Assembly: GCA_041649575.1 (NCBI GenBank)
Contig: JBAZMW010000002.1
Location: 148,487 to 212,486 of the forward strand
DNA from: Patescibacteria group bacterium
GTDB lineage: Bacteria > Patescibacteriota > Patescibacteriia > 2-01-FULL-39-33
Reading direction: 5' to 3'
DNA: 64,000 bases
The position numbers were made by a program, and so were the translations under genes. Of this stretch, positions 5,487 through 45,283 are shown one piece after another. A model generated the notes under the pieces. It was not told the DNA's origin. It worked only from the letters and a program-made list of their open reading frames with translations, and ran no database searches. Position 1 is the first letter of the stretch, and every line of letters begins with the position of its first letter.

Positions 5487-6035
5487 ATGTGGTCTGTTGT
5501 TTGGCAAGCTTTTTATTTGGCCTGGCCGGCTTATTTGGCCAATATGGCGCCGGTTATTTTCAAAAATTTTGGTTGGTTAAAATTTTTGGATCGGCCGATA
5601 GATGGCGGCAAAAAATTCGGCGGTGATTATCTTTTTGGACGGCACAAGACTTGGCGCGGGCTCCTGGCCGCTATCGTCGGCGGAGCTTTGGCCAGCTTTT
5701 TTCAGCTGATTCTTTATCGTTATCAGTTTTTCAGTTCTTTTTCTCTTTTTGACTACAACCAGCAGTGGCTGCTGGTCGGTTTACTTGGTGGTCTGGGCGC
5801 TATCCTGGGTGATTTGGCAAAAAGTTTTTTCAAACGTCGCCTGAAGATCGCCTCGGGCCGGTCTTGGCCGGTTTTTGACCAGTTGGATTTTATTTTTGGT
5901 TTTTTTGTTTTTGTTTATCTAACAGTCAGGCCGCCACTATTAGTGGTTGTCGTTGTTTTTCTAATCACCCTTATTCTTCATCCTTTGACTAATGTTTTTG
6001 CTTATCTTTTGAGATTTAAAAAAGTTTGGTGGTAA
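5487..6035 (+). CDS. CDP-archaeol synthase-like (DUF46/CarS family) membrane protein
   Basis: N-terminus AYLANMAPVIFKN..GGKKFGGDYLFG.HKTWRG is typical of the CarS family. Polytopic and small. Confidence 0.55.
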   Translation: MWSVVWQAFYLAWPAYLANMAPVIFKNFGWLKFLDRPIDGGKKFGGDYLFGRHKTWRGLLAAIVGGALASFFQLILYRYQFFSSFSLFDYNQQWLLVGLLGGLGAILGDLAKSFFKRRLKIASGRSWPVFDQLDFIFGFFVFVYLTVRPPLLVVVVVFLITLILHPLTNVFAYLLRFKKVWW

Positions 6036-6934
6036 TCAAGATGAAAAAAGCGTTAATTATTTTTAACCCCACCGCCGGCCTGGTTAGCAGACAGGATGTC
6101 CGCGGGCTGGTGGAAAAAAAATTGAAAGAGCTGGGCTTCGACTGGGAATTGTTTTTGCTTAACTCGGAGTTTGAAAAAAATATCTCCAGCTTTGATTTTT
6201 CCGGGCTCAAGTTGGTGGTGGCGGTGGGCGGTGACGGCACGATCAAGGTGGCGGCCCGCACCATTTTAAAAAACAAACTGACTTGCCCGTTGGCGGTCGT
6301 GCCTTTTGGTTCGGCCAATGTGATAGCTTCCACCCTGGCCATCCCCATTAGTATTAAAGAAGCTTTAAAGCTTTTAGACAAACCTAGTACCAAAAAAATC
6401 GACGTCGGCCTGATTAATGGCAACCGTTATTTTTTGGTCGGTTTTTCCTTGGGCTATATCTCCGACATCGTTATTAATACCGGCAAAGGACTGAAAAATC
6501 GTTTTGGTATGCTGGGCTATTTTTGGCGATTATTTTTTAATAAAATCAGAATCTCCCGGCTTAAATTCAAAATCCAAACCCGCAACAGGACTTTCTGGCT
6601 CAAGGGCAATAGCCTGATAATTTTTAACGCTTTCAATTATTTTGGTTTCCGGCCCAAAAGGCCTATCAGCATCAGCGACGGCATTTTTAATCTCTACGTC
6701 ATTACTAATAAGACTTTTTTTTCTTTGATCCGGGCTGGATTTTATATCCTGCTCTACCACCAGCCGCCGCGTTATGTTTTTACTTTGGATAATAATTTCT
6801 TTAGAATAACTCTGCGCCGTCAACACTTTCTCAAAACCGCTCAAATCGACGGCGATCATCTCAATTTGCCGCGGGAAATAATCATCGAGGTATTGCCCCG
6901 GGCGCTAGAAATGGTGGTAAAAAATAATGGCTAA
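6026..6934 (+). CDS. Lipid kinase of the DAGK_cat family (YegS/BmrU-like)
   Basis: VAVGGDGTI diacylglycerol-kinase catalytic motif. Overlaps the upstream CarS-like gene by 10 nt. Confidence 0.55.
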   Translation: MVVIKMKKALIIFNPTAGLVSRQDVRGLVEKKLKELGFDWELFLLNSEFEKNISSFDFSGLKLVVAVGGDGTIKVAARTILKNKLTCPLAVVPFGSANVIASTLAIPISIKEALKLLDKPSTKKIDVGLINGNRYFLVGFSLGYISDIVINTGKGLKNRFGMLGYFWRLFFNKIRISRLKFKIQTRNRTFWLKGNSLIIFNAFNYFGFRPKRPISISDGIFNLYVITNKTFFSLIRAGFYILLYHQPPRYVFTLDNNFFRITLRRQHFLKTAQIDGDHLNLPREIIIEVLPRALEMVVKNNG

Positions 6935-9106: not shown

Positions 9107-9277
9107 CTGGCGCGCCTTAGCCGGCTGCCGGAGTTCTCTAATTGGGGCTAGTGATCATACCAATCACCGGCCTCTGTTTTTTGTTTTAAGCGTAGTTGAC
9201 ATTGATAATGAAAACCCTTAAGATAATCTTTCGATCTTTCAAGTTAAACTAGTAAGGCAACCATGGAGGGAGCTGCC

Positions 9278-10015
9278 ATGTTTCTGGTATTATTTTCCAT
9301 TCTGGTCTACCCAGTGGCCTTTGTCACCTTCGTCGTTTGCGCCTCAATCTACCTGGCGTTTGTCTTTGTCTTCAAGTCGCTGGGCTGGGAGCTGCAGTAC
9401 CTGGGGCCGTTGGTTCGGTTTCTGGCTCGCGTGATTCTCTTGAGTTGTGGCCAATGGCTCAAGGTTGGGGGCAACTGGCCCTCTCCGACTATCGGGCCTT
9501 GCATCTTTCTCTTCAACCACAGCTCTATCCTGGATGCTCTGGTGGCTGGCGCGGTGCTAAAAGGACGGTTCACTGGCGTGGCTGCCCAGGAGTATTTCTT
9601 TTGGCCGCTGTGGGGAACCATTATGCGCTGGCACAATATCATTCCCATCAAGCGCAAGTGCCACGACGAGGCCATAGAGAGCATGCGGCGGGCGGAAGAG
9701 GCGATAAAAAACGGCTGGTCAATAGGCGGCTTTCCCGAGGGCACCAGAAGCAAGACAGGAGAGTTGCAGCCGTTCAAAAAGGGCCTTTTCTATGTGGCCA
9801 AGGCCACGGGCGCGCCGATCGTGGTGATAGCCATCAAGGGGGCGTACCGTGCCAAGAGTCGCGTCGGTTGGTGTGTTCGGCCGGGAGTGATAACGGCCAC
9901 TATCGGCAAACCCTGGACCCTGTGGTCTAACGGAAAGCAACGGTATGCGGCCTTGTCGGTGGAAGAGTTAAGGCAACTGGCCGAAGGGCTCATGGCAACC
10001 ATGCTCGAAAGTTGA
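9278..10015 (+). CDS. 1-acyl-sn-glycerol-3-phosphate acyltransferase-like (PlsC/LPLAT family), high-GC
   Basis: NHSSILD (HX4D) and FPEGTRS acyltransferase motifs. Has its own TTGACA..TAAGATAAT promoter at 9196-9231 and a GGAGGG SD before ATG 9278. Confidence 0.7.
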   Translation: MFLVLFSILVYPVAFVTFVVCASIYLAFVFVFKSLGWELQYLGPLVRFLARVILLSCGQWLKVGGNWPSPTIGPCIFLFNHSSILDALVAGAVLKGRFTGVAAQEYFFWPLWGTIMRWHNIIPIKRKCHDEAIESMRRAEEAIKNGWSIGGFPEGTRSKTGELQPFKKGLFYVAKATGAPIVVIAIKGAYRAKSRVGWCVRPGVITATIGKPWTLWSNGKQRYAALSVEELRQLAEGLMATMLES

Positions 10016-10046
10016 GCGTCAGGCGGTTCCCGCTAGCGTAAGTATC

Positions 10047-10078
10047 CGGCAACAGCGATGTTTGCCGGTTTTTCTTTA
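10047..10078 (+). terminator. Intrinsic terminator closing high-GC cassette A
   Basis: ccggcaacagcgatgtttgccgg hairpin followed by TTTTTCTTT. Confidence 0.6.
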
Positions 10079-10123
10079 CTTGATAAAATCTCCTAATTTG
10101 TTATAATTCAGTCAAACATTTTT

Positions 10124-11941
10124 ATGACCGCCAAAGAACTCAAACAAAAATATTTAGAATTTTTTGAGCGCCACGGCCACCAGATTATTCCTGGCGCCTC
10201 ACTGATTCCGGAGAACGACCCGACGGTTTTATTTACCACGGCCGGCATGCATCCGCTCGTGCCTTATCTGCTTGGCGAAAAGCATCCCGCCGGCACACGC
10301 CTGGCCGATGTCCAAAAATGCATCAGGACCGGCGACATCGACAGCGTGGGCGACGACTGGCATCTGACTTTTTTTGAAATGCTGGGCAATTGGTCGCTGG
10401 GCGACCCCAAGGATCCCAAAGGGATCGGGGCAGGTTATTTCAAAAAAGAAGCCATTGAGATGAGTTTTGAATTTTTAACCAAAGAGTTAAATATACCTTT
10501 GGAAAAATTGGCGGTTTCTTGCTTCGCCGGCGATGATGATGCGCCAAAAGACGAAGAATCGGCGAGTGCTTGGCGTTCGCTGGGGATCAGTGACAAACGG
10601 ATTGCTTTTTTGAGTAAGGAAGATAATTGGTGGCCGGCCGGTGGCAAAATGCCCGGTCCTCAAGGCCCGGACACGGAGATGTTTTATTGGAACTCGGATG
10701 AGTCGGCGCCGGAAGATTTCGACCCACAGGACAAGCGCTGGGTGGAAATCTGGAATGATGTTTTTATGCAATATAACAAGGCCGCCGACGGCAGCTACCA
10801 GCCGCTGGTGCAACAAAATGTCGATACCGGCATGGGATTGGAGCGTACCGTTGCTATCTTAAACGGCAAAAAAAGCGTCTACGAAATCGAGCCGCTCTTA
10901 ACCGTTTGTTCGCAAGTAACGGCTTTATTCGAGAGCACCCTGGAAGAACTGGAAGCCGAACAAACCAAAGCCGTCAGAATCATTGCCGATCATTTGCGCG
11001 CCGCCGTCTTTATTTTGGCCGAGAGCGTGGCGCCCTCCAACGTTGAACGTGGCTATGTCCTGCGCCGGCTGATTCGGCGCGCTATTCGCTATGGCAAGCA
11101 ACTGGGCATCAAAGACGCTTTCACTGCCAAAGTGGCCGAAGTGGTCATCGCGCAAATGGGCGGATTTTATAAGGAACTAAGAGAACAGCGAGATTTCATT
11201 ATCGATGAATTAAACAACGAAGAAGAAAAGTTTAGCGCTACTTTAGAAAACGGCTTAAAAAAGTTTGAAAAATTAAAAATTGACGAGCAAAAAAAGATCA
11301 GCGGCCAAGATGCTTTTATTCTTTTTTCCACTTATGGTTTCCCTTTGGAGATTACCAAAGACTTGGCCACCGAGCGCGGTTGGCAAGTTGACGAAGAAAA
11401 TTTTAATCTAGAATTTGCCAAGCATCAGGACATTTCCCGAAAAGGCGCCGAGCAAAAATTCAAGGGCGGTTTGGCCGATAATAGCGAAGTGACGGCCAAG
11501 ATGCATACCGCCACGCATTTGATGTTGGCGGCTTTGCGCCGGGTGTTGGGCGATCACGTTTACCAAAAAGGTGCCAACATCACCAGCGAGCGCATTCGCT
11601 TTGATTTTTCCCATGGCGAAAAAATGACAGCAGAACAAATCAAGCAAGTGGAAGACTTGGTCAATGAACAAATTAATAAAAAGATTCCCGTGGTCTGCGA
11701 AGAAATGACGCTAGAAGAAGCCAAGGAGAGGGGAGCGATGGGAGTTTTTAAAAATAAATACGGCGAGCGGGTTAAGGTTTATACCGTCGGCGATCCCTCG
11801 GCAGGATCGGGACAGGTTTTTTCCAAAGAGATTTGCGGCGGTCCGCATGCCGCCAACACCGGTGATCTGGGCCACTTCAAAATCCAAAAAGAAGAATCCA
11901 GCTCCGCCGGAGTCAGAAGAATTAAGGCGGTTCTGGAGTGA
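10124..11941 (+). CDS. alaS: Alanine--tRNA ligase, short form lacking the C-terminal C-Ala/DHHA1 region
   Basis: N-terminus LEFFERHGHQIIPGASLIPENDPTVLFTTAGM is AlaS class II. Editing-site HTATHLMLAALR and CGGPH are present. Only 605 aa versus ~870 typical. Confidence 0.85.
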   Translation: MTAKELKQKYLEFFERHGHQIIPGASLIPENDPTVLFTTAGMHPLVPYLLGEKHPAGTRLADVQKCIRTGDIDSVGDDWHLTFFEMLGNWSLGDPKDPKGIGAGYFKKEAIEMSFEFLTKELNIPLEKLAVSCFAGDDDAPKDEESASAWRSLGISDKRIAFLSKEDNWWPAGGKMPGPQGPDTEMFYWNSDESAPEDFDPQDKRWVEIWNDVFMQYNKAADGSYQPLVQQNVDTGMGLERTVAILNGKKSVYEIEPLLTVCSQVTALFESTLEELEAEQTKAVRIIADHLRAAVFILAESVAPSNVERGYVLRRLIRRAIRYGKQLGIKDAFTAKVAEVVIAQMGGFYKELREQRDFIIDELNNEEEKFSATLENGLKKFEKLKIDEQKKISGQDAFILFSTYGFPLEITKDLATERGWQVDEENFNLEFAKHQDISRKGAEQKFKGGLADNSEVTAKMHTATHLMLAALRRVLGDHVYQKGANITSERIRFDFSHGEKMTAEQIKQVEDLVNEQINKKIPVVCEEMTLEEAKERGAMGVFKNKYGERVKVYTVGDPSAGSGQVFSKEICGGPHAANTGDLGHFKIQKEESSSAGVRRIKAVLE

Positions 11942-39984: not shown

Positions 39985-40289
39985 ATACCAGCCTTTTTTG
40001 CAAAAGTAAATCAGTCTTGTTATAATAAAAGTGGTTCATTTCCTCGAGACCCGAACTGGTCATTTGGGTCTCACCGCTCCGGTGGGGAAGCGAAACCAGC
40101 GCCTTCGCTTCCCCTCTGGCTTAACCAAAGCACCTTGGTAGCACTTCCCGGGTCTACTGAAAGCCGCATCCAGGCAAGCATTAGACCCGTTCCCGCTGTG
40201 GCGGCCGATGGCATCAGTCATCAGCCGTCCTTTTTGTTTATCCACAGTTAAATATTTATAACCAAAGAAATCTTTGCTATAATAAAATC

Positions 40290-40626
40290 ACATTGGACAT
40301 GGGGCTTGTCAAATGGCCCTGCAACCAGTCCGAACGGAGAACGAGCCATGAGAACAAAGACAACGAAGCGAGCAGCAGTGGGCGTGATGGTCGATGGCAC
40401 CGGCGGAACAGCGTACTTGGCGACGTCCTGACCTAACGAGAACGGTCGGACTGGGCGTCAAAGAAGTTCTCCGAGACGCTTGACTCAACCCAAGCGTCTC
40501 GCCGCACCTTAACTCTCCTCGGAGAGTTGTGACTATAGGTTTTCACGCTTTGACAAAGCGTGGACATCCCCCTAAGGTGAGCAGTCGGTTGCTGACAGGT
40601 AGCCGACTCTCTTTTTGTTTTTAAAA
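40290..40626 (+). ncRNA. Candidate ~330-nt GC-rich structured RNA with embedded 27-codon ORF and intrinsic terminator
   Basis: TATAAT at 40276. Perfect hairpins gagacgcttg..caagcgtctc, cacgcttt..aaagcgtg and ctctcc..ggagag. Long-range pair ccagtccga/tcggactgg. Terminator agtcggttgctgacaggtagccgact plus T-run. GGAGAA SD before ATG 40347 (MRTKTTKRAAVGVMVDGTGGTAYLATS). Confidence 0.35.
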
Positions 40627-40755
40627 AATTTAGTTATCCACAGGTACTATTTATTTCTTTAAAAAATAGTTATATAATGAAAGTGCGGAAGGTATTTACG
40701 ATAGCGTACAACCGAAGCAGGCCATCGGCCAAACGATCGGCCAAACGAAAGAAAG

Positions 40756-41259
40756 GTGGGACGGAAGATGAGAAAGTTCGTGTTTTGTACGGTAGTACTG
40801 GCGTTCGCGTTTGTGATGATTCCGGCGACGAATACTCCGGCATACGCGACGCAACTCGATCAAGGCAAGGCAGTGGCGACGGCTCCGACGACGATGGGGA
40901 CGACGCAGCAGGACGTGCAGACGGCGATGAAGAGCAACCTGGTCCTCGACGGCACCGGGCAGAAAGTCGCTGAAGTGATGAAGGCGCCGACTCTTGACTC
41001 CGGACGAGTGATTGCGCAGACGGCGACGACGAAGACGGCACGCGAAGAGCAGACGAAGATCACGGCGAAGAGTGACACGGTTGTAACGGCGAAGATCGAA
41101 GCGCAAGGCATGGGCGAGCAGATGGCAGCGGCTGGCGAAGATGACGCTGGCACGATCATCGTGGCGACGAAGAGTGACACCTATGCGACGAGAATCGAGG
41201 GCCGTATCGCTCACGACGCGGACGCGACCTTCAATGCGAACGTTCTGATCATCGGCTAA
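40756..41259 (+). CDS. Secreted low-complexity Thr/Ala-rich protein, high-GC
   Basis: AAAGGTGGGACGGAAG SD region. Signal peptide MRKFVFCTVVLAFAFVMIPATNTPAYA. The rest is T/A/K-rich with no domain. Confidence 0.5.
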   Translation: MGRKMRKFVFCTVVLAFAFVMIPATNTPAYATQLDQGKAVATAPTTMGTTQQDVQTAMKSNLVLDGTGQKVAEVMKAPTLDSGRVIAQTATTKTAREEQTKITAKSDTVVTAKIEAQGMGEQMAAAGEDDAGTIIVATKSDTYATRIEGRIAHDADATFNANVLIIG

Positions 41260-41431
41260 CCACGCGGGCAGCGCCGAAAGTCAGAACGAGTAGTACCTTG
41301 GATACACAACCGATACCGGCCAACAGTCGGATCGGCCACCTCCAGAGTTGGGTCAGCTGGCAACGGCGACCCTCTCTTTTTTTGTTTTGAAAAAATTTGC
41401 CAAAATTTTATAAATTTTTTATACTATAAGC

Positions 41432-41756
41432 AAGCGGTTCCTGCTGTGGGAACCGTGCACATTGGGTCAACGGGTCAACCGGAGGGTACAAGCAATATGA
41501 AAAAGGAAATGAGAGCGCAGGGTTTGGTCGTGGCGAAATGGAAGTAGGCTAGACCGTAGCAAGGCAACTTAGCGTTGTTGGGCGGAGGCCCCAACTAACA
41601 GTGGGCCTCCGCTGAATCTTTCCCTCGCTTGAGCGGGGTGCTGGTATATCCTTCTCTGAAGGGGTTCCCCCGTTGGGAAGTGTTGCCCATTCAACGCCTC
41701 CTGACCGCACAGGCTGCAATTTGTCGCAAGACGAAGGGCAGCCTGAATTATTTTTT
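41432..41756 (+). ncRNA. Candidate ~320-nt GC-rich structured RNA with 16-codon ORF, upstream of the radical SAM gene
   Basis: 11-bp hairpin ggcggaggccc..gggcctccgcc. GGAGGG SD before ATG 41497 (MKKEMRAQGLVVAKWK). Ends with stem caggctgc..gcagcctg plus T-run immediately before the radical-SAM promoter. Confidence 0.3.
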
Positions 41757-41781
41757 GCTATACTTAATTTATACTGAATTT

Positions 41782-42657
41782 ATGAGAGCAGCCAAATTTT
41801 ACAAAAAATCAGGGGCTAATGTTAAATGTCAGCTTTGTCGGCATTTTTGTCTGATTGCCCCAGCCAAGTTCGGCCTCTGCGGCATGAGGAAGAATATCGA
41901 CGGCCGGCTTTATTCTCTTAATTACGGTAAAATCATTGCCAGCCAGATTGACCCGATCGAAAAAAAACCGCTCTATCATTTTTTGCCAGGCAGTTTTGCT
42001 TATTCTTTGGCTTGCCCCGGCTGTAATTTTAAATGCCTTAATTGCCAAAATTCCGATCTTTCCCAAATCACCCCGGCTTTACAAAAGGCCGTTGATTCTT
42101 TGCCGGAAACCAGGCCGGAAGAGATTGTCGAGGCGGCCTGGGAAAACAATTGCCCGTCAATCGCTTATACCTATACCGAGCCCACCATTTTTGCCGAGTT
42201 TGCTCTCGACTGCATGGAGCTGGCCAGAGACAGTAATCTAAAAAATATCTGGGTTTCCAATGGCTATCTGTCGCCCGGTTGTCTGGAGGCCATCAGCCCC
42301 TATCTTGACGCCATTAATATTGATTTGAAATTTTTTAGCGATAAAAATTATCAAAAAATTTGCGGCGCTCGCCTAAAACCAGTCTTGGATAATCTGGTTG
42401 CTTTTAAAACAGCCAAAATTCATTTGGAAATCACCACTTTAATCATTCCCTCACTTAATGATAGCGATGAAGAGTTAACCGCTCTGGCAGAGTTTATTTA
42501 TCAAAAATTGGGCGACGACACGCCCTGGCATCTGGGCGCCTTTCACCCCGCTTACAAATTAAAAAATTTACCGGCTACGCCGACAGAAACCATCAAGCGG
42601 GCCCAGGCAATCGGGAAAAATATCGGCCTGAAATATGTTTATCCGGGAAATGTTTGA
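41782..42657 (+). CDS. AmmeMemoRadiSam-system radical SAM enzyme (PflA-like)
   Basis: AKFYKK...KCQLCRHFC...GLCGMRKN.DGRLYSLNYGK...DPIEKKPLYHFLPGS...CPGCNFKCLNCQN matches the family signature. Start moved downstream from the ORF-track start to MRAAKF. Confidence 0.7.
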   Translation: MRAAKFYKKSGANVKCQLCRHFCLIAPAKFGLCGMRKNIDGRLYSLNYGKIIASQIDPIEKKPLYHFLPGSFAYSLACPGCNFKCLNCQNSDLSQITPALQKAVDSLPETRPEEIVEAAWENNCPSIAYTYTEPTIFAEFALDCMELARDSNLKNIWVSNGYLSPGCLEAISPYLDAINIDLKFFSDKNYQKICGARLKPVLDNLVAFKTAKIHLEITTLIIPSLNDSDEELTALAEFIYQKLGDDTPWHLGAFHPAYKLKNLPATPTETIKRAQAIGKNIGLKYVYPGNV

Positions 42658-42753
42658 CTCTAATTTAAACCGGATTGTTTTTTTGGCTGTCTTAACGCCT
42701 GAATTTTTGTTATAATGATTTATGGTGCATGAAAGATTAGTAAACAAAATTAA

Positions 42754-44109
42754 ATGAGAAAAAACTACCAATTAGCGGTATTATTTTGTTTTTTGCTTTT
42801 TTTGCTTTTACCCTTTACGGTTGGGGCGGCCGATTTCGATCCCGATTATCTGATTTCTGATACCGAATTGGCCAATCACAATTCTTTGGACCTGTCTGAT
42901 ATTCAAAGATTTTTGGACAAAAGAAATGGCACGCTCAAGGGTTATGTCACCCTTGATAAAGAAGGCAACCTAAAAACCGCCGTCCAGGCTTTTTTCGAGG
43001 TGGCGCAGAAGTGGCTGATCAACCCCAAATATTTGTTGGTGTTGGTACAAAAAGAGCAAAGCTTACTCGAAGATACCAATCCCTCCCAGGGCCAATATGA
43101 CCGCGCTACCGGTTATGGTTGTCCCGATACCGGCGGTTGCGACGACCGCTGGAAGGGCTTCTATCGCCAGGTAAATTCCGCCGCGGCTCAAACCCGCTAT
43201 TATCTGGACAATATTAATGAGTTTACTTATCAGCCGGGAAAGGCCTATAATATTGACGGGCAGTCTGTCACTCCCAAAAACACCGCCACCGCCGGTTTGT
43301 ACAATTATACCCCCCATCTTCACGGCAATCAGAATTTCTGGAACCTTTGGAACCAGTATTTTGGCAAAAAATGGCCTAATGGCGCCCTGTTGCAAGCCGA
43401 AGGCGACGCTAGCAAGGTTTATTTGATTGAAAACGAAGAAAAACGCGAAATTATATCCAAAGCGGTTTTTGCCTCCCGCTTCGACAGTAAAAAAATAATC
43501 ACTGTCGGCCAGGAAGATCTGGATTCTTATGACTCTGGCGTGCCCATAAAATACCTCAATTTTTCCCTGCTTAAAAGCAGCCGCGGCGACATTTACATGA
43601 TCGTTGACGACCAAAAAAGAAAAATTGCCAGTCAGGAAGTTTTCAAAAAAATCGGTTTTATGGAAGATGAGGTGATTCCGGCGGATGACAGCGAGCTGGG
43701 CCTTTATAAAGACGGTCCCGAGATTACCAGCTATACCCTTTATCCCGCCGGGACGCTTTTGCAAGACAGCCAGACTAAACAAATTTTTTATGTCATCAGC
43801 GGCAAGAAGCGGCCAATAATCAATAAAGAAATCCTGGCTTTTAATTTTAACGGCTTGCCGGTCAAAAAAGTTTCTCCCGTCGAACTGGAATCGTACCGCT
43901 CTGGCAATCCCGTCACCTTGCCCGATGGTGAACTGGTCAAAATCAAGGGAGCCAATACGGTTTACGTGATTTCCAATGGCAAACGTCTGCCGATTTTCAA
44001 CGCCAAGATTTTCGAAAAAATGAATTATAAATGGACTAACGTCAAAACCGTTTCCAAAGAGACCCTGGAAGTTCATGAGCTGGGTCAAACCATCACCGGC
44101 GATTGGTAA
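42754..44109 (+). CDS. Secreted protein with four ~55-aa internal repeats
   Basis: Signal peptide MRKNYQLAVLFCFLLFLLLPFTVGAA. Four repeats of the type KVYLIENEEKREIISKAVF / DIYMIVDDQKRKIASQEVF / KQIFYVISGKKRPIINKEIL / NTVYVISNGKRLPIFNAKIF. Confidence 0.5.
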   Translation: MRKNYQLAVLFCFLLFLLLPFTVGAADFDPDYLISDTELANHNSLDLSDIQRFLDKRNGTLKGYVTLDKEGNLKTAVQAFFEVAQKWLINPKYLLVLVQKEQSLLEDTNPSQGQYDRATGYGCPDTGGCDDRWKGFYRQVNSAAAQTRYYLDNINEFTYQPGKAYNIDGQSVTPKNTATAGLYNYTPHLHGNQNFWNLWNQYFGKKWPNGALLQAEGDASKVYLIENEEKREIISKAVFASRFDSKKIITVGQEDLDSYDSGVPIKYLNFSLLKSSRGDIYMIVDDQKRKIASQEVFKKIGFMEDEVIPADDSELGLYKDGPEITSYTLYPAGTLLQDSQTKQIFYVISGKKRPIINKEILAFNFNGLPVKKVSPVELESYRSGNPVTLPDGELVKIKGANTVYVISNGKRLPIFNAKIFEKMNYKWTNVKTVSKETLEVHELGQTITGDW

Positions 44110-44138
44110 AGATTGCTATCTAAATTAATCAAAAACAT

Positions 44139-44930
44139 ATGTCTCTAGTTTTCGCGGCCATTGTGCCGCATCCGCCAATTCTCATACCCACCATTGGCAA
44201 AGAAAATTTGGAAAAGATACAAAAAACCCAAAAAGCCATGGAGCGTTTGGAGCAAGACCTTTATGCTTCCAAACCAGACATTCTAATCATAATTTCCCCT
44301 CATGGCGAAGTTCAGCATGATTTTTTTACCATCAACTTGTCTAATCAGTACCAAATTAGTTTTAACGACTTCGGCGATTTTGCCACCAAATTAGAAACCG
44401 GTGGCGACACTATCCTTATCTCGGTCAATAAAGAAAAAATCAACAGCCGCTCCCCTATCAATATTATTTCCGAGCCTAACTTGGACCACGGAATTGGCGT
44501 CCCTTTTTATTATTTGGGCCAACACCTCAAGGAAACCAAGCTGATCCCGATTTATTTTTCTTTGCTGGATAATTTGGCTCATTTGGAATTCGGCAAAAAT
44601 CTGAAAGAGGCCATTATGGGCACCGAAAAAAGAGTGGCCGTGGTGGCTTCCGGCGATTTGTCGCACTGCCTGACCGAAAACGCGCCAGCGCCTTTTAGTC
44701 CGGCTGGCAAAGAATTTGATGAAAAATTAATCGCTTTGCTCAAAAATGGCGATACCCAGGGGGTGATTAATCTGGAACCAAAATTCATCGAAAGCGCCGC
44801 CGAATGCGGCCTGCGTTCGATTTTAATTCTTTTGGGAGTTTTGAATAACATTAGCTTTCAATCGGAAATCTTGAGTTATGAGGCGCCTTTCGGCGTCGGC
44901 TACCTGGTGGCGAATTTCAAATTGGAATAA
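44139..44930 (+). CDS. MEMO1-family protein (AmmeMemoRadiSam system protein B-like; LigB superfamily)
   Basis: AIVPHPP, NLDHGIGVP, SGDLSHC, AECG and SYEAPFGVGYLVANF line up with MEMO1 family motifs APHAGY, DEHS[IL]E, SDFCH, ICG and SY..AG. Confidence 0.55.
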   Translation: MSLVFAAIVPHPPILIPTIGKENLEKIQKTQKAMERLEQDLYASKPDILIIISPHGEVQHDFFTINLSNQYQISFNDFGDFATKLETGGDTILISVNKEKINSRSPINIISEPNLDHGIGVPFYYLGQHLKETKLIPIYFSLLDNLAHLEFGKNLKEAIMGTEKRVAVVASGDLSHCLTENAPAPFSPAGKEFDEKLIALLKNGDTQGVINLEPKFIESAAECGLRSILILLGVLNNISFQSEILSYEAPFGVGYLVANFKLE

Positions 44931-44943
44931 AGATTAATTTTTT

Positions 44944-44975
44944 AAAACCGCCCTCGTTGGCGGTTTTTTTATTTG
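44944..44975. terminator. Bidirectional intrinsic terminator
   Basis: aaaaccgcc-ctcgtt-ggcggttttttt. Confidence 0.6.
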
Positions 44976-45283
44976 TCTGCCAGTACTTTAAAAAAATATT
45001 TCCACCTCTCTTTTTGCGCCAGTTCCTTGGTCTCGTTTAAGGCTCTCTCTATTATAATCTGGTTATTTTCTTTGCAAACCTTAAAAACAGAATTCCGCTT
45101 AAAAGCCGGCACGCCCAGCTCCTTGATTATTTTTAGAGCCAGTTCTTGCCATTGGTAAGCGGGCGGCTTTTTTGACTGCCGATTGGTAAAAATATCACTT
45201 AATGATTGAAGTCCTTTATTGTCTTTCATACCTAAGGAATTGTAATGGGATTTCTTTAAAAAGTTAAGAGGTGCGAAAATCAA
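44969..45283 (-). CDS. Hypothetical protein (104 aa)
   Basis: ORF only, no recognised domain. Its 3' end overlaps the terminator. Confidence 0.3.
   Translation of the reverse strand: MIFAPLNFLKKSHYNSLGMKDNKGLQSLSDIFTNRQSKKPPAYQWQELALKIIKELGVPAFKRNSVFKVCKENNQIIIERALNETKELAQKERWKYFFKVLADK

Follow-up and report, generated by a model that had tools for sequence, protein, structure and literature searches.

The window analysed here (the whole stretch of 64,000 nucleotides from the genome of a Patescibacteria group bacterium) carries a locus of three open reading frames on the + strand, at 41782-42657, 42754-44109 and 44139-44930, and the gene calls of the source assembly give the same three genes. 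They encode a radical SAM enzyme (291 aa from the ATG; the open reading frame itself opens at 41629), a secreted protein of 451 residues (the 451-aa protein, encoded by the 451 gene) and a protein termed B. The genes are co-directional with short gaps (97 nt between the radical SAM and 451 genes, 29 nt between the 451 and B genes), frameshifts and internal stops are absent from all three, and one terminator-like hairpin lies at the end. The features of the locus are as follows:

41432-41781, + strand: GC-rich, strongly structured leader, from a promoter-like site to the start codon of the radical SAM gene; membership of the unit uncertain
41782-42657, + strand: AmmeMemoRadiSam-type radical SAM enzyme, short form, 291 aa (TIGR04337, Pfam Radical_SAM)
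42754-44109, + strand: secreted 451-aa protein (signal peptide, lysozyme/GH73-like domain, four repeats)
42754-42828, + strand: predicted signal peptide of the 451-aa protein, about residues 1-25 (MRK, a hydrophobic stretch, VGA/AD)
42832-43377, + strand: lysozyme/GH73-like N-domain by fold comparison, about residues 27-208, including E101
43378-44106, + strand: four tandem repeats of about 60 aa, predicted EccB/PlyCB-like fold
43378-43557, + strand: repeat 1, residues 209-268
43558-43743, + strand: repeat 2, residues 269-330
43744-43923, + strand: repeat 3, residues 331-390
43924-44106, + strand: repeat 4, residues 391-451
44139-44930, + strand: LigB-type (class III extradiol dioxygenase-like) protein B, 263 aa, cytoplasmic (Pfam LigB, fold)
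44944-44977, + strand: intrinsic-terminator-like hairpin with T-run, directly 3' of the B gene
44969-45283, - strand: small conserved gene of at most 104 aa, convergent with B and its usual 3' neighbour in the clade

The promoter-like site (TTGCCA-17-TATACT, 41397-41425) lies upstream of the leader, which gives an RNA fold z of -3.48. The GC-rich stretch upstream of the radical SAM gene gave no Rfam match, whether at the gathering score or with E raised to 1, and similarity to it was not found in any of the fetched loci. At the opposite end, the hairpin comprises a stem of nine pairs (AAAACCGCC/GGCGGTTTT) followed by TTTATTTG; neither intergenic gap holds a terminator-like site, and the hairpin after B is the probable 3' end of a radical SAM-451-B unit, common to the convergent gene too. 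The latter has no Pfam match and is found 3' of B in 51 of 63 loci. Envelope genes are abundant nearby (a WecG-type transferase, a Wzy-like protein, GT2 transferases, a Wzx-type flippase and an M23 peptidase), and since def, fmt, gltX and clpB also occur in the neighbourhood, this envelope theme is not exclusive. A second Memo/LigB gene or a polyprenyl synthetase gene was not found in the window.

The AmmeMemoRadiSam system is made up of an AMMECR1-like protein A (TIGR04335), a Memo-like protein B (TIGR04336) and a radical SAM enzyme (TIGR04337); the literature searched mentions the term in passing only and yielded no functional study. A preliminary description of this DNA had recognised the first gene as a radical SAM gene with the diagnostic Cys-rich N-terminus, which is borne out by scores of 293.9 bits against TIGR04337 (cutoff 220), placing it in the family, and 63.1 bits against Pfam Radical_SAM. 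The N-terminal Cys16, Cys19, Cys23 and Cys33 (C-x2-C-x3-C-x9-C) are kept in 12 of 12 aligned homologues, and the canonical SAM-cluster motif C81-x3-C85-x2-C88 is present. The TIGR04337 match covers profile positions 7-286 of 349, and its end at position 286 indicates that the C-terminal tail is missing, a point which had been overlooked; in an alignment of short and long forms, the enzyme lacks the CxxC..CxxC tail of about 46 aa found in long-form homologues. Enzymes of the short form (286-312 aa) are widespread, at 57-68% identity; they are intact, with every Cys motif retained, and they adjoin AMMECR1 in loci L106, L111, L115, L118, L168 and L170. On a partial classification, tail loss seemed to go with AMMECR1 loss, but the association did not hold over the full set of loci: 23 long-form loci had AMMECR1 and 8 lacked it, against 7 and 8 short-form loci, respectively (Fisher p = 0.10; the sampling is biased).

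Protein B, to which MEMO1-like motifs had been ascribed, bears out that claim only weakly. It scores 33.7 bits against TIGR04336 (cutoff 26) over residues 116-247 only, and as HpaD/LigB models score at least as high, this membership is formal only. Against Pfam LigB it reaches 130.9 bits (gathering score 26.3) over residues 6-257, versus 33.9 bits against Pfam Memo. When the profile of the B family is compared with the PDB, TK2203 is found at E 2.4e-12 and MEMO1 at E 0.41, while the predicted model (pLDDT 95.5) resembles TK2203 with a TM of 0.83 and MEMO1 with a TM of 0.62 (ranked 32nd or lower); TK2203 and the aminophenol, homoprotocatechuate, gallate and DOPA dioxygenases span 0.77-0.85. By sequence and predicted fold, the product of this gene is thus LigB-type and not MEMO1-like. 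TK2203 (Thermococcus kodakarensis, PDB 5HEE), the best match in both comparisons, is a LigB-fold protein of 262 aa, like B in length and deposited as uncharacterised, but it is only about 20% identical to B. MEMO1 (PDB 3BCZ, 7KQ8) has its superfamily in common with B but differs in the profile and fold scores given above; B, unlike MEMO1, has retained E222, the Glu of the 2-His-1-Glu triad. This protocatechuate dioxygenase-Memo superfamily is described in a passage of PMC7694686 as comprising 15 families (Burroughs et al., 2019, as cited there).

The candidate metal site of B consists of H11, H55 and E222/C223; H11, H55 and H176 are invariant, E222 is at least 90% conserved, H117 and E248 are further conserved residues, and the His/Glu residues align with the corresponding motifs of aminophenol dioxygenase beta. 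From the class III extradiol family, H11, H55 and E222 are taken here to be the 2-His-1-Glu iron ligands and H176 the catalytic His, so B appears to keep the predicted metal site. An invariant C223-G224 lies within the stretch weakly matching the Memo profile and is presumably the Cys-Gly motif of Memo. Because its partner, a radical SAM enzyme, is oxygen-labile, B probably does not act here as an O2-dependent ring-cleaving dioxygenase. It has no signal peptide and would therefore act in a different compartment from the 451-aa protein.

The 451-aa protein gave no Pfam or NCBIfam match, even for separated domains at E up to 10, and its N-domain no sequence match to PF01832 (GH73) in Pfam at E up to 10; with sequence searches empty, the informative evidence is that of fold comparison. 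The predicted model matches peptidoglycan hydrolases and wall-binding repeats, and E101, in a QKEQS motif of the N-domain, is invariant. The four repeats show 20-31% pairwise identity, match one another in phmmer and have a common strand/helix pattern in the model, each being a small beta-alpha domain of the fold seen in EccB and PlyCB-type domains, which all four match. The secreted nature of the protein and its four repeats had been noted before and agree with the signal-like N-terminus and the phmmer matches, while the repeat length then given (about 55 aa) has to be corrected to about 60 aa. The closest wall enzymes compared were the GH73 N-acetylglucosaminidases (LytB, AtlE and the Clostridium perfringens autolysin), and its predicted layout is that of an autolysin, with binding repeats behind a signal peptide and a catalytic domain; it differs from them in having no detectable PF01832 or other Pfam similarity and in the tight linkage of its gene to a cytoplasmic LigB-type gene. 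As judged from the model, the protein is most likely a secreted peptidoglycan hydrolase, and its repeats probably bind the cell wall. Its family carries no annotation beyond 'hypothetical' and had not been described before; the members are secreted and resemble peptidoglycan hydrolases.

The absence of AMMECR1 from the window, already remarked upon, was confirmed: an RGCIG motif was not found in any of the six frames, and jackhmmer, hmmsearch and tblastn gave no AMMECR1 match. Nor does the gene lie just outside in canonical order, as had been considered, given that no PF01871 gene occurs in the roughly 10 kb that flank the window on each side. Because the search covered about 83 kb of the 235-kb contig around the cluster, and not other contigs, AMMECR1 may be present elsewhere in the genome.

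Gene order was surveyed in 80 loci of GTDB species representatives carrying the 451 gene, the clade relatives being labelled Falkowbacteria, Buchananbacteria and Uhrbacteria. The 451 gene is directly followed by B in 77 of these loci, with a median gap of 24 nt and four overlaps; in L033 and L079 it occurs without B, and tblastn detected no B remnants there. Its upstream neighbour varies: of 64 loci, 20 have clpB there, 7 the radical SAM gene and 37 some other gene. The order radical SAM-451-B of the window recurs in L007, L009, L011, L015, L018, L026, L031, L048, L067 and L171, and in L026 AMMECR1 completes the series (radical SAM-451-B-AMMECR1). AMMECR1 follows B in L005, L026, L036, L087, L091 and L105, and clpB stands between the radical SAM and 451 genes wherever the former is 2.6-8.6 kb upstream. 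Within 10 kb, the radical SAM gene is found in only 16 of the 80 loci and AMMECR1 in only 3. The layout is therefore common to the whole clade and not a one-off insertion: the part that is stable across loci is the 451-B pair, with the radical SAM gene and AMMECR1 kept beside it in some loci only. The preliminary description had called the 451 gene 'inserted' and the gene order 'unusual', which holds as a description of the locus but fails as an inference, as the order recurs across the clade; its suggestion to check for a conserved neighbourhood with the secreted repeat protein has a positive answer, with radical SAM-451-B found in at least 10 lineages. Given how seldom the radical SAM gene and AMMECR1 are near, B may work without them in most of the clade. 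Part of the 451-B pairing could also be inherited gene order and not functional coupling, since the small convergent gene is conserved as well.

Beyond this clade, about 25 radical SAM-B-AMMECR1 clusters among the loci fetched by an AMMECR1 query have a B protein which scores better against LigB than against Memo. Fusions of LigB to AMMECR1 were found in six loci, with the radical SAM gene following in L161, L166 and L168, which are all three of those with downstream sequence; the LigB halves of these fusions share 33-39% identity with B of the window. Such clusters and fusions (e.g. L106, L116, L126 and L166) have the same B subfamily (LigB 80-184 bits versus Memo at most 56 bits) and the same radical SAM family as the window, but their AMMECR1 is adjacent or fused to B, the 451-family gene is absent and the radical SAM enzyme is mostly of the long form. 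In many uncultured lineages, the protein that regularly accompanies the radical SAM enzyme and AMMECR1 is of LigB type and not of Memo type. These comparisons also speak against the possibility, raised earlier, of a generic LigB dioxygenase unrelated to MEMO1, in that the B subfamily sits in radical SAM-B-AMMECR1 clusters and is fused to AMMECR1 elsewhere. Stand-alone AMMECR1 directly follows a polyprenyl synthetase gene in 13 of the 25 loci with enough upstream sequence, an adjacency that ties the wider system to isoprenoids, while 43 of 80 AMMECR1 loci hold no radical SAM or B partner in the available sequence, several of them with 10 kb flanks.

The reading best supported, and a probable one, is that the locus is a clade-typical, LigB-type variant of AmmeMemoRadiSam without AMMECR1 in the cluster. 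It shares with the known system a clear TIGR04337 enzyme, a B protein above the TIGR04336 cutoff, names assigned by the NCBI pipeline to both genes (the B gene being already called 'AmmeMemoRadiSam system protein B') and related loci with AMMECR1 directly after B. It differs in the missing AMMECR1 (none in about 83 kb), in a B protein of LigB type and not Memo type, in the radical SAM enzyme without its C-terminal Cys-rich tail, and in the 1.36-kb wall-hydrolase-like gene that keeps the co-directional radical SAM and B genes from being adjacent, an order which is itself conserved. An ancestral radical SAM-B-AMMECR1 operon, an arrangement common elsewhere, would have taken up the wall-enzyme gene between radical SAM and B early in the clade and, in many lineages, clpB as well; AMMECR1 would later have left the cluster in most lineages, that of the window included. 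In the present-day locus, the 451 and B genes would be co-transcribed, the radical SAM enzyme may start chemistry on a small-molecule or lipid substrate via a 5'-deoxyadenosyl radical, and the iron-site protein B may process the same substrate in the cytoplasm. The exported 451-aa protein would bind the wall through its repeats and cleave glycan strands with E101 as catalytic acid. A further step, in which the near-constant 451-B pairing would reflect a single envelope pathway, is doubtful: B, joined by the radical SAM enzyme in loci that have it, would modify a polyprenyl-linked precursor of the wall or the carrier lipid itself, and the wall structure so produced would be the target of the exported enzyme.

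The locus is accordingly a variant of a known system that runs through a clade and lacks AMMECR1 in the cluster, with both of its system genes already named by NCBI. It adds that, in a single Patescibacteria clade, linkage of the B gene to the 451 family is tighter than to the partners of its own system, and that B can remain when AMMECR1 and the radical SAM gene are lost from the cluster. Burroughs and co-workers are said to have linked Memo to nucleotide-base and isoprenoid modification. The 451-B pairing, together with the adjacency of AMMECR1 to polyprenyl synthetase, offers a modest, testable lead to an envelope or isoprenoid role, the layout itself being only a modest lead to the substrate of the system. 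Were the envelope-pathway reading true, the locus would hint at an isoprenoid or envelope substrate for the entire AmmeMemoRadiSam system, components of which are spread over all domains of life and whose human relatives, AMMECR1 and MEMO1, are linked to disease and still without a biochemical explanation. Were the pairing only inherited order, the finding would be a clade-specific layout of already annotated genes.

Among the alternatives, the one with the most substantial, though lesser, chance is that the system is complete, AMMECR1 being encoded elsewhere in the genome and the three proteins working as in canonical clusters, so that the locus would be partial only in layout. The frequent separation of AMMECR1 genes near the Patescibacterial type from the radical SAM and B genes (the 43 of 80 loci above) and the restriction of the search to part of the contig fit such an arrangement; the absence of AMMECR1 from the roughly 83 kb covered and its rarity within 10 kb in the clade weigh against it.

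It is also possible, at a lower probability, that the working module is the pair of wall enzyme and LigB-type B, independent of AmmeMemoRadiSam. B would then make or alter an envelope precursor, for example a polyprenyl-linked one, the exported enzyme would handle this precursor or its product in the wall, and the radical SAM enzyme would be an occasional accessory or a chance neighbour. The adjacency of the pair amid variable flanks, with short or overlapping gaps, agrees with such a module, as do the envelope-rich neighbourhood and the isoprenoid tie of stand-alone AMMECR1. Nevertheless, the two proteins differ in compartment, the B subfamily also occurs without a 451 gene, in AMMECR1 fusions and in clusters with the radical SAM gene, the 451 gene occurs without B in two loci, and the nearby genes include the non-envelope set named above.

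A decaying remnant, in which the radical SAM enzyme has lost its zinc-ribbon-like tail, AMMECR1 is gone, the system is non-functional and only the wall enzyme (perhaps also B) remains under selection, is unlikely. The shortened enzyme and the failure to find AMMECR1 could be so explained, but short forms are intact, widespread and also adjoin AMMECR1, their tail loss does not track AMMECR1 loss, and the three genes are free of frameshifts and internal stops. Least credible of all is the earlier notion of a Memo-type system recently split here by an unrelated secreted-protein gene: the order of the three genes and the weak Memo/TIGR04336 match may recall it, but the locus survey contradicts it, the same order being common to lineages in which 451-family proteins share only 39-70% identity, sequence and fold alike mark B as LigB-type, and the insertion peculiar to this genome, by comparison with the fetched loci, is another one, the 1.8-kb GC-rich stretch upstream of the radical SAM gene.

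The locus is a conserved, AMMECR1-less variant of the known AmmeMemoRadiSam system in which protein B is, by profile scores and predicted fold, LigB-type. Both system genes (radical SAM enzyme and protein B) were already annotated, while the secreted gene embedded between them is a predicted peptidoglycan-hydrolase-like member of a family without annotation. The contig with the locus (ENA ERZ27247363, k141_2894300; 235 kb) comes from a metagenome-assembled Patescibacteria genome, and ORF calls agree with the positions assigned to the three genes in the preliminary description, of which the observations largely stand and the interpretation stands in part. The features concerned are:

41782-42657, + strand: radical SAM enzyme, 291 aa
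42754-44109, + strand: secreted protein, 451 aa
44139-44930, + strand: protein B, 263 aa
44969-45283, - strand: small gene, ~90-104 aa, convergent with the protein B gene, without a Pfam match

Housekeeping and envelope genes of the kind usual in small genomes surround the trio: an M23 peptidase, gltX, a WecG-type glycosyltransferase and one hypothetical gene (hyp229) lie upstream, and downstream are def, fmt, a Wzy-like membrane protein, GT2 transferases and a Wzx-type flippase. A terminator-like hairpin (44944-44967) is located directly 3' of the protein B gene, and none was found in either intergenic gap of the trio. The reported absence of AMMECR1 from the window was upheld by motif, jackhmmer, HMM and tblastn searches; likewise, AMMECR1 was not found among the called genes within ~10 kb past either window end (83 kb of contig covered), and it could be encoded elsewhere in the genome.

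The radical SAM enzyme belongs to TIGR04337 as proposed (293.9 bits, cutoff 220), and the Cys-rich N-terminus described for it is present and conserved (C16-x2-C19-x3-C23-x9-C33), together with the radical SAM motif C81-x3-C85-x2-C88. It is a short form: the profile match stops at position 286 of 349, and aligned homologues of 338-349 aa carry a CxxC..CxxC tail of ~46 aa that it lacks. Within the family, short forms (286-312 aa) and long forms (~338-349 aa, with a C-terminal zinc-ribbon-like CxxC..CxxC tail) can be distinguished; among Patescibacteria, the short form is common and intact. A link between it and AMMECR1 loss was tested for and dropped. Each form is seen both with and without AMMECR1. 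On a Portnoybacteria contig (L172, 8001-8885), a short-form gene stands alone amid SufS/NifU, glutaredoxin and thioredoxin-reductase-like genes.

The label “MEMO1-like” given to the 44139 gene has to be replaced, as profile scores, PDB search and predicted fold all place protein B with LigB rather than Memo. Pfam LigB matches it over the full length (130.9 bits), whereas Pfam Memo reaches 33.9 bits in the C-terminal half. Protein B scores 33.7 bits against TIGR04336 and clears this model because the cutoff is only 26 bits; hence the NCBI pipeline name “AmmeMemoRadiSam system protein B”. In the PDB, a profile built from 35 family members retrieves TK2203 (5HEE, E 2.4e-12) along with several class III extradiol dioxygenases, while MEMO1 appears in the same search only at E 0.41. 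The AlphaFold2 model (pLDDT 95.5) superposes on TK2203 with a TM of 0.83 and on LigB-type dioxygenases with 0.77-0.85, as against 0.62 for MEMO1. Residues H11, H55, H117, H176, C223, G224 and E248 are invariant in the family and E222 nearly so; since the His/Glu motifs conserved in aminophenol dioxygenase beta line up with H11, H55, H176 and E222, the 2-His-1-Glu site is probably intact.

Although the Memo label was wrong, protein B is not the generic LigB dioxygenase unrelated to MEMO1 that would have refuted the preliminary description, because the same LigB subfamily clusters and fuses with AMMECR1 and the radical SAM enzyme. Four aligned AMMECR1 proteins of Patescibacteria served as the query for 80 metagenome loci, of which ~25 carry the radical SAM enzyme, protein B and AMMECR1 genes in a row. 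In six (L114, L117, L143, L161, L166, L168), protein B and AMMECR1 are fused into single proteins of ~465 aa, and a TIGR04337-type gene lies 3' of the fusion in the three with downstream sequence (L161, L166, L168). The L166 fusion (9122-10528) was confirmed to hold LigB and AMMECR1 in one 468-aa protein. All protein B sequences and fusion halves scanned score as LigB (80-184 bits) over Memo (<=56 bits), and the window protein shares 33-39% identity with the LigB halves of the fusions. LigB-type protein B is thus a true partner in the AmmeMemoRadiSam system.

The 42754-44109 product is indeed a secreted four-repeat protein, with a signal-peptide-like N-terminus and four repeats of ~60 aa that are 20-31% identical and detect one another by phmmer. 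Its family counts 663 proteins in the collection searched; every one is named “hypothetical” and none has a Pfam domain. In the structural model (pLDDT 88.6), the N-terminal helical domain resembles peptidoglycan-cleaving enzymes of the lysozyme fold (Foldseek probability 1.0 against S. aureus AtlE), and E101, within an invariant QKE motif, is the obvious candidate for the putative catalytic acid. The protein is read here as a secreted autolysin-like enzyme, a prediction made from the fold only.

The trio layout is common to the whole clade. Scanning the family alignment against one genome per GTDB species yielded 80 loci, with proteins 39-69% identical to the window protein. In 77 of the 80 (63 of the 65 with enough downstream sequence), the next gene 3' encodes protein B in the same orientation, at a median gap of 24 nt (<=30 nt in 41 loci, overlapping in 4). 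The gene on the 5' side (64 loci) is more variable: clpB in 20, the radical SAM gene in 7, hyp229 in 5, wecG in 2 and others in 30. The radical SAM gene abuts the secreted-protein gene in L011, L015, L018, L026, L031, L048 and L067, and also in L007, L009 and L171; a further nine loci have it 2.6-8.6 kb 5' in the same orientation, with clpB between. AMMECR1 follows protein B in L005, L026, L036, L087, L091 and L105, and L026 carries all four genes in the order radical SAM, secreted protein, protein B, AMMECR1, overlapping or nearly so; the window represents this arrangement without AMMECR1. The simplest interpretation is that an ancestral operon of radical SAM enzyme, protein B and AMMECR1 would have gained the wall-enzyme gene between the first two early in the clade, with clpB also entering there in many lineages. 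The secreted-protein and protein B genes would then have been retained as a pair almost everywhere, and the radical SAM and AMMECR1 genes relocated or lost in most lineages.

What is shown comprises gene content, conserved order, folds and conserved residues; the steps of action below are proposed. The radical SAM enzyme and the iron-site protein B would share one substrate in the cytoplasm, and protein B, having an oxygen-labile radical SAM enzyme as its partner, probably does not cleave rings in an O2-dependent manner. The secreted protein would be exported and work on the cell wall. The wall enzyme and protein B may serve one shared pathway, as their genes are tightly paired and envelope genes surround the locus. 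A further point in its favour comes from AMMECR1 genes without the other two system genes: 13 of 25 with enough upstream sequence (L094, L095, L098, L100, L102, L120, L121, L138, L145, L147, L148, L159, L160; for example, L121 7919-10510) lie directly 3' of a co-directional polyprenyl synthetase gene (PF00348), often with an IF-2B-family gene 5' of the synthetase. This adjacency is an independent tie of AMMECR1 to isoprenoid metabolism and fits the suggestion, reportedly made by Burroughs et al. in 2019, that these systems modify isoprenoids. However, the two proteins would act in separate compartments, protein B occurs in clusters without any gene of the secreted family, and the latter occurs without protein B in two loci. 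Conservation also extends to the small convergent gene, present 3' of protein B in 51 of 63 related loci, so part of the gene order may simply be inherited. The locus is a moderately interesting lead to the AmmeMemoRadiSam substrate and not a new kind of system.

Several minor features were also observed. The 1.8 kb upstream of the radical SAM gene (39985-41781; GC ~0.51, 0.42-0.45 nearby) resembles a series of three or four small units, in each of which a TATAAT-type promoter-like site is accompanied by a hairpin or T-run and by structured, GC-rich sequence (RNA fold z = -5.15 at 40033-40240 and -3.48 at 41432-41781). The stretch matches nothing in Rfam and resembles none of the ~170 fetched loci; it includes a 163-aa ORF (40768-41259) with a signal-peptide-like start, for which homologues were not found. 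These units may represent undescribed small RNAs, or else foreign DNA peculiar to this genome. In L004 (3497-5722), from a related genome, a single gene call of 741 aa spans the WecG-type transferase and glutamyl-tRNA synthetase, either a true fusion or a missed stop. A second radical SAM gene (61002-62417, - strand, 471 aa), unrelated to the TIGR04337-type one, has tRNA-Gln (62619-62691) and an FtsX-like gene in its vicinity. The host lineage is usually described as without lipid synthesis; at ~5487-6934 (L173 14464-15911), a CarS-like gene (PF01864) adjoins a diacylglycerol-kinase-like gene, with an acyltransferase gene a few kb away, forming a small lipid-related group.
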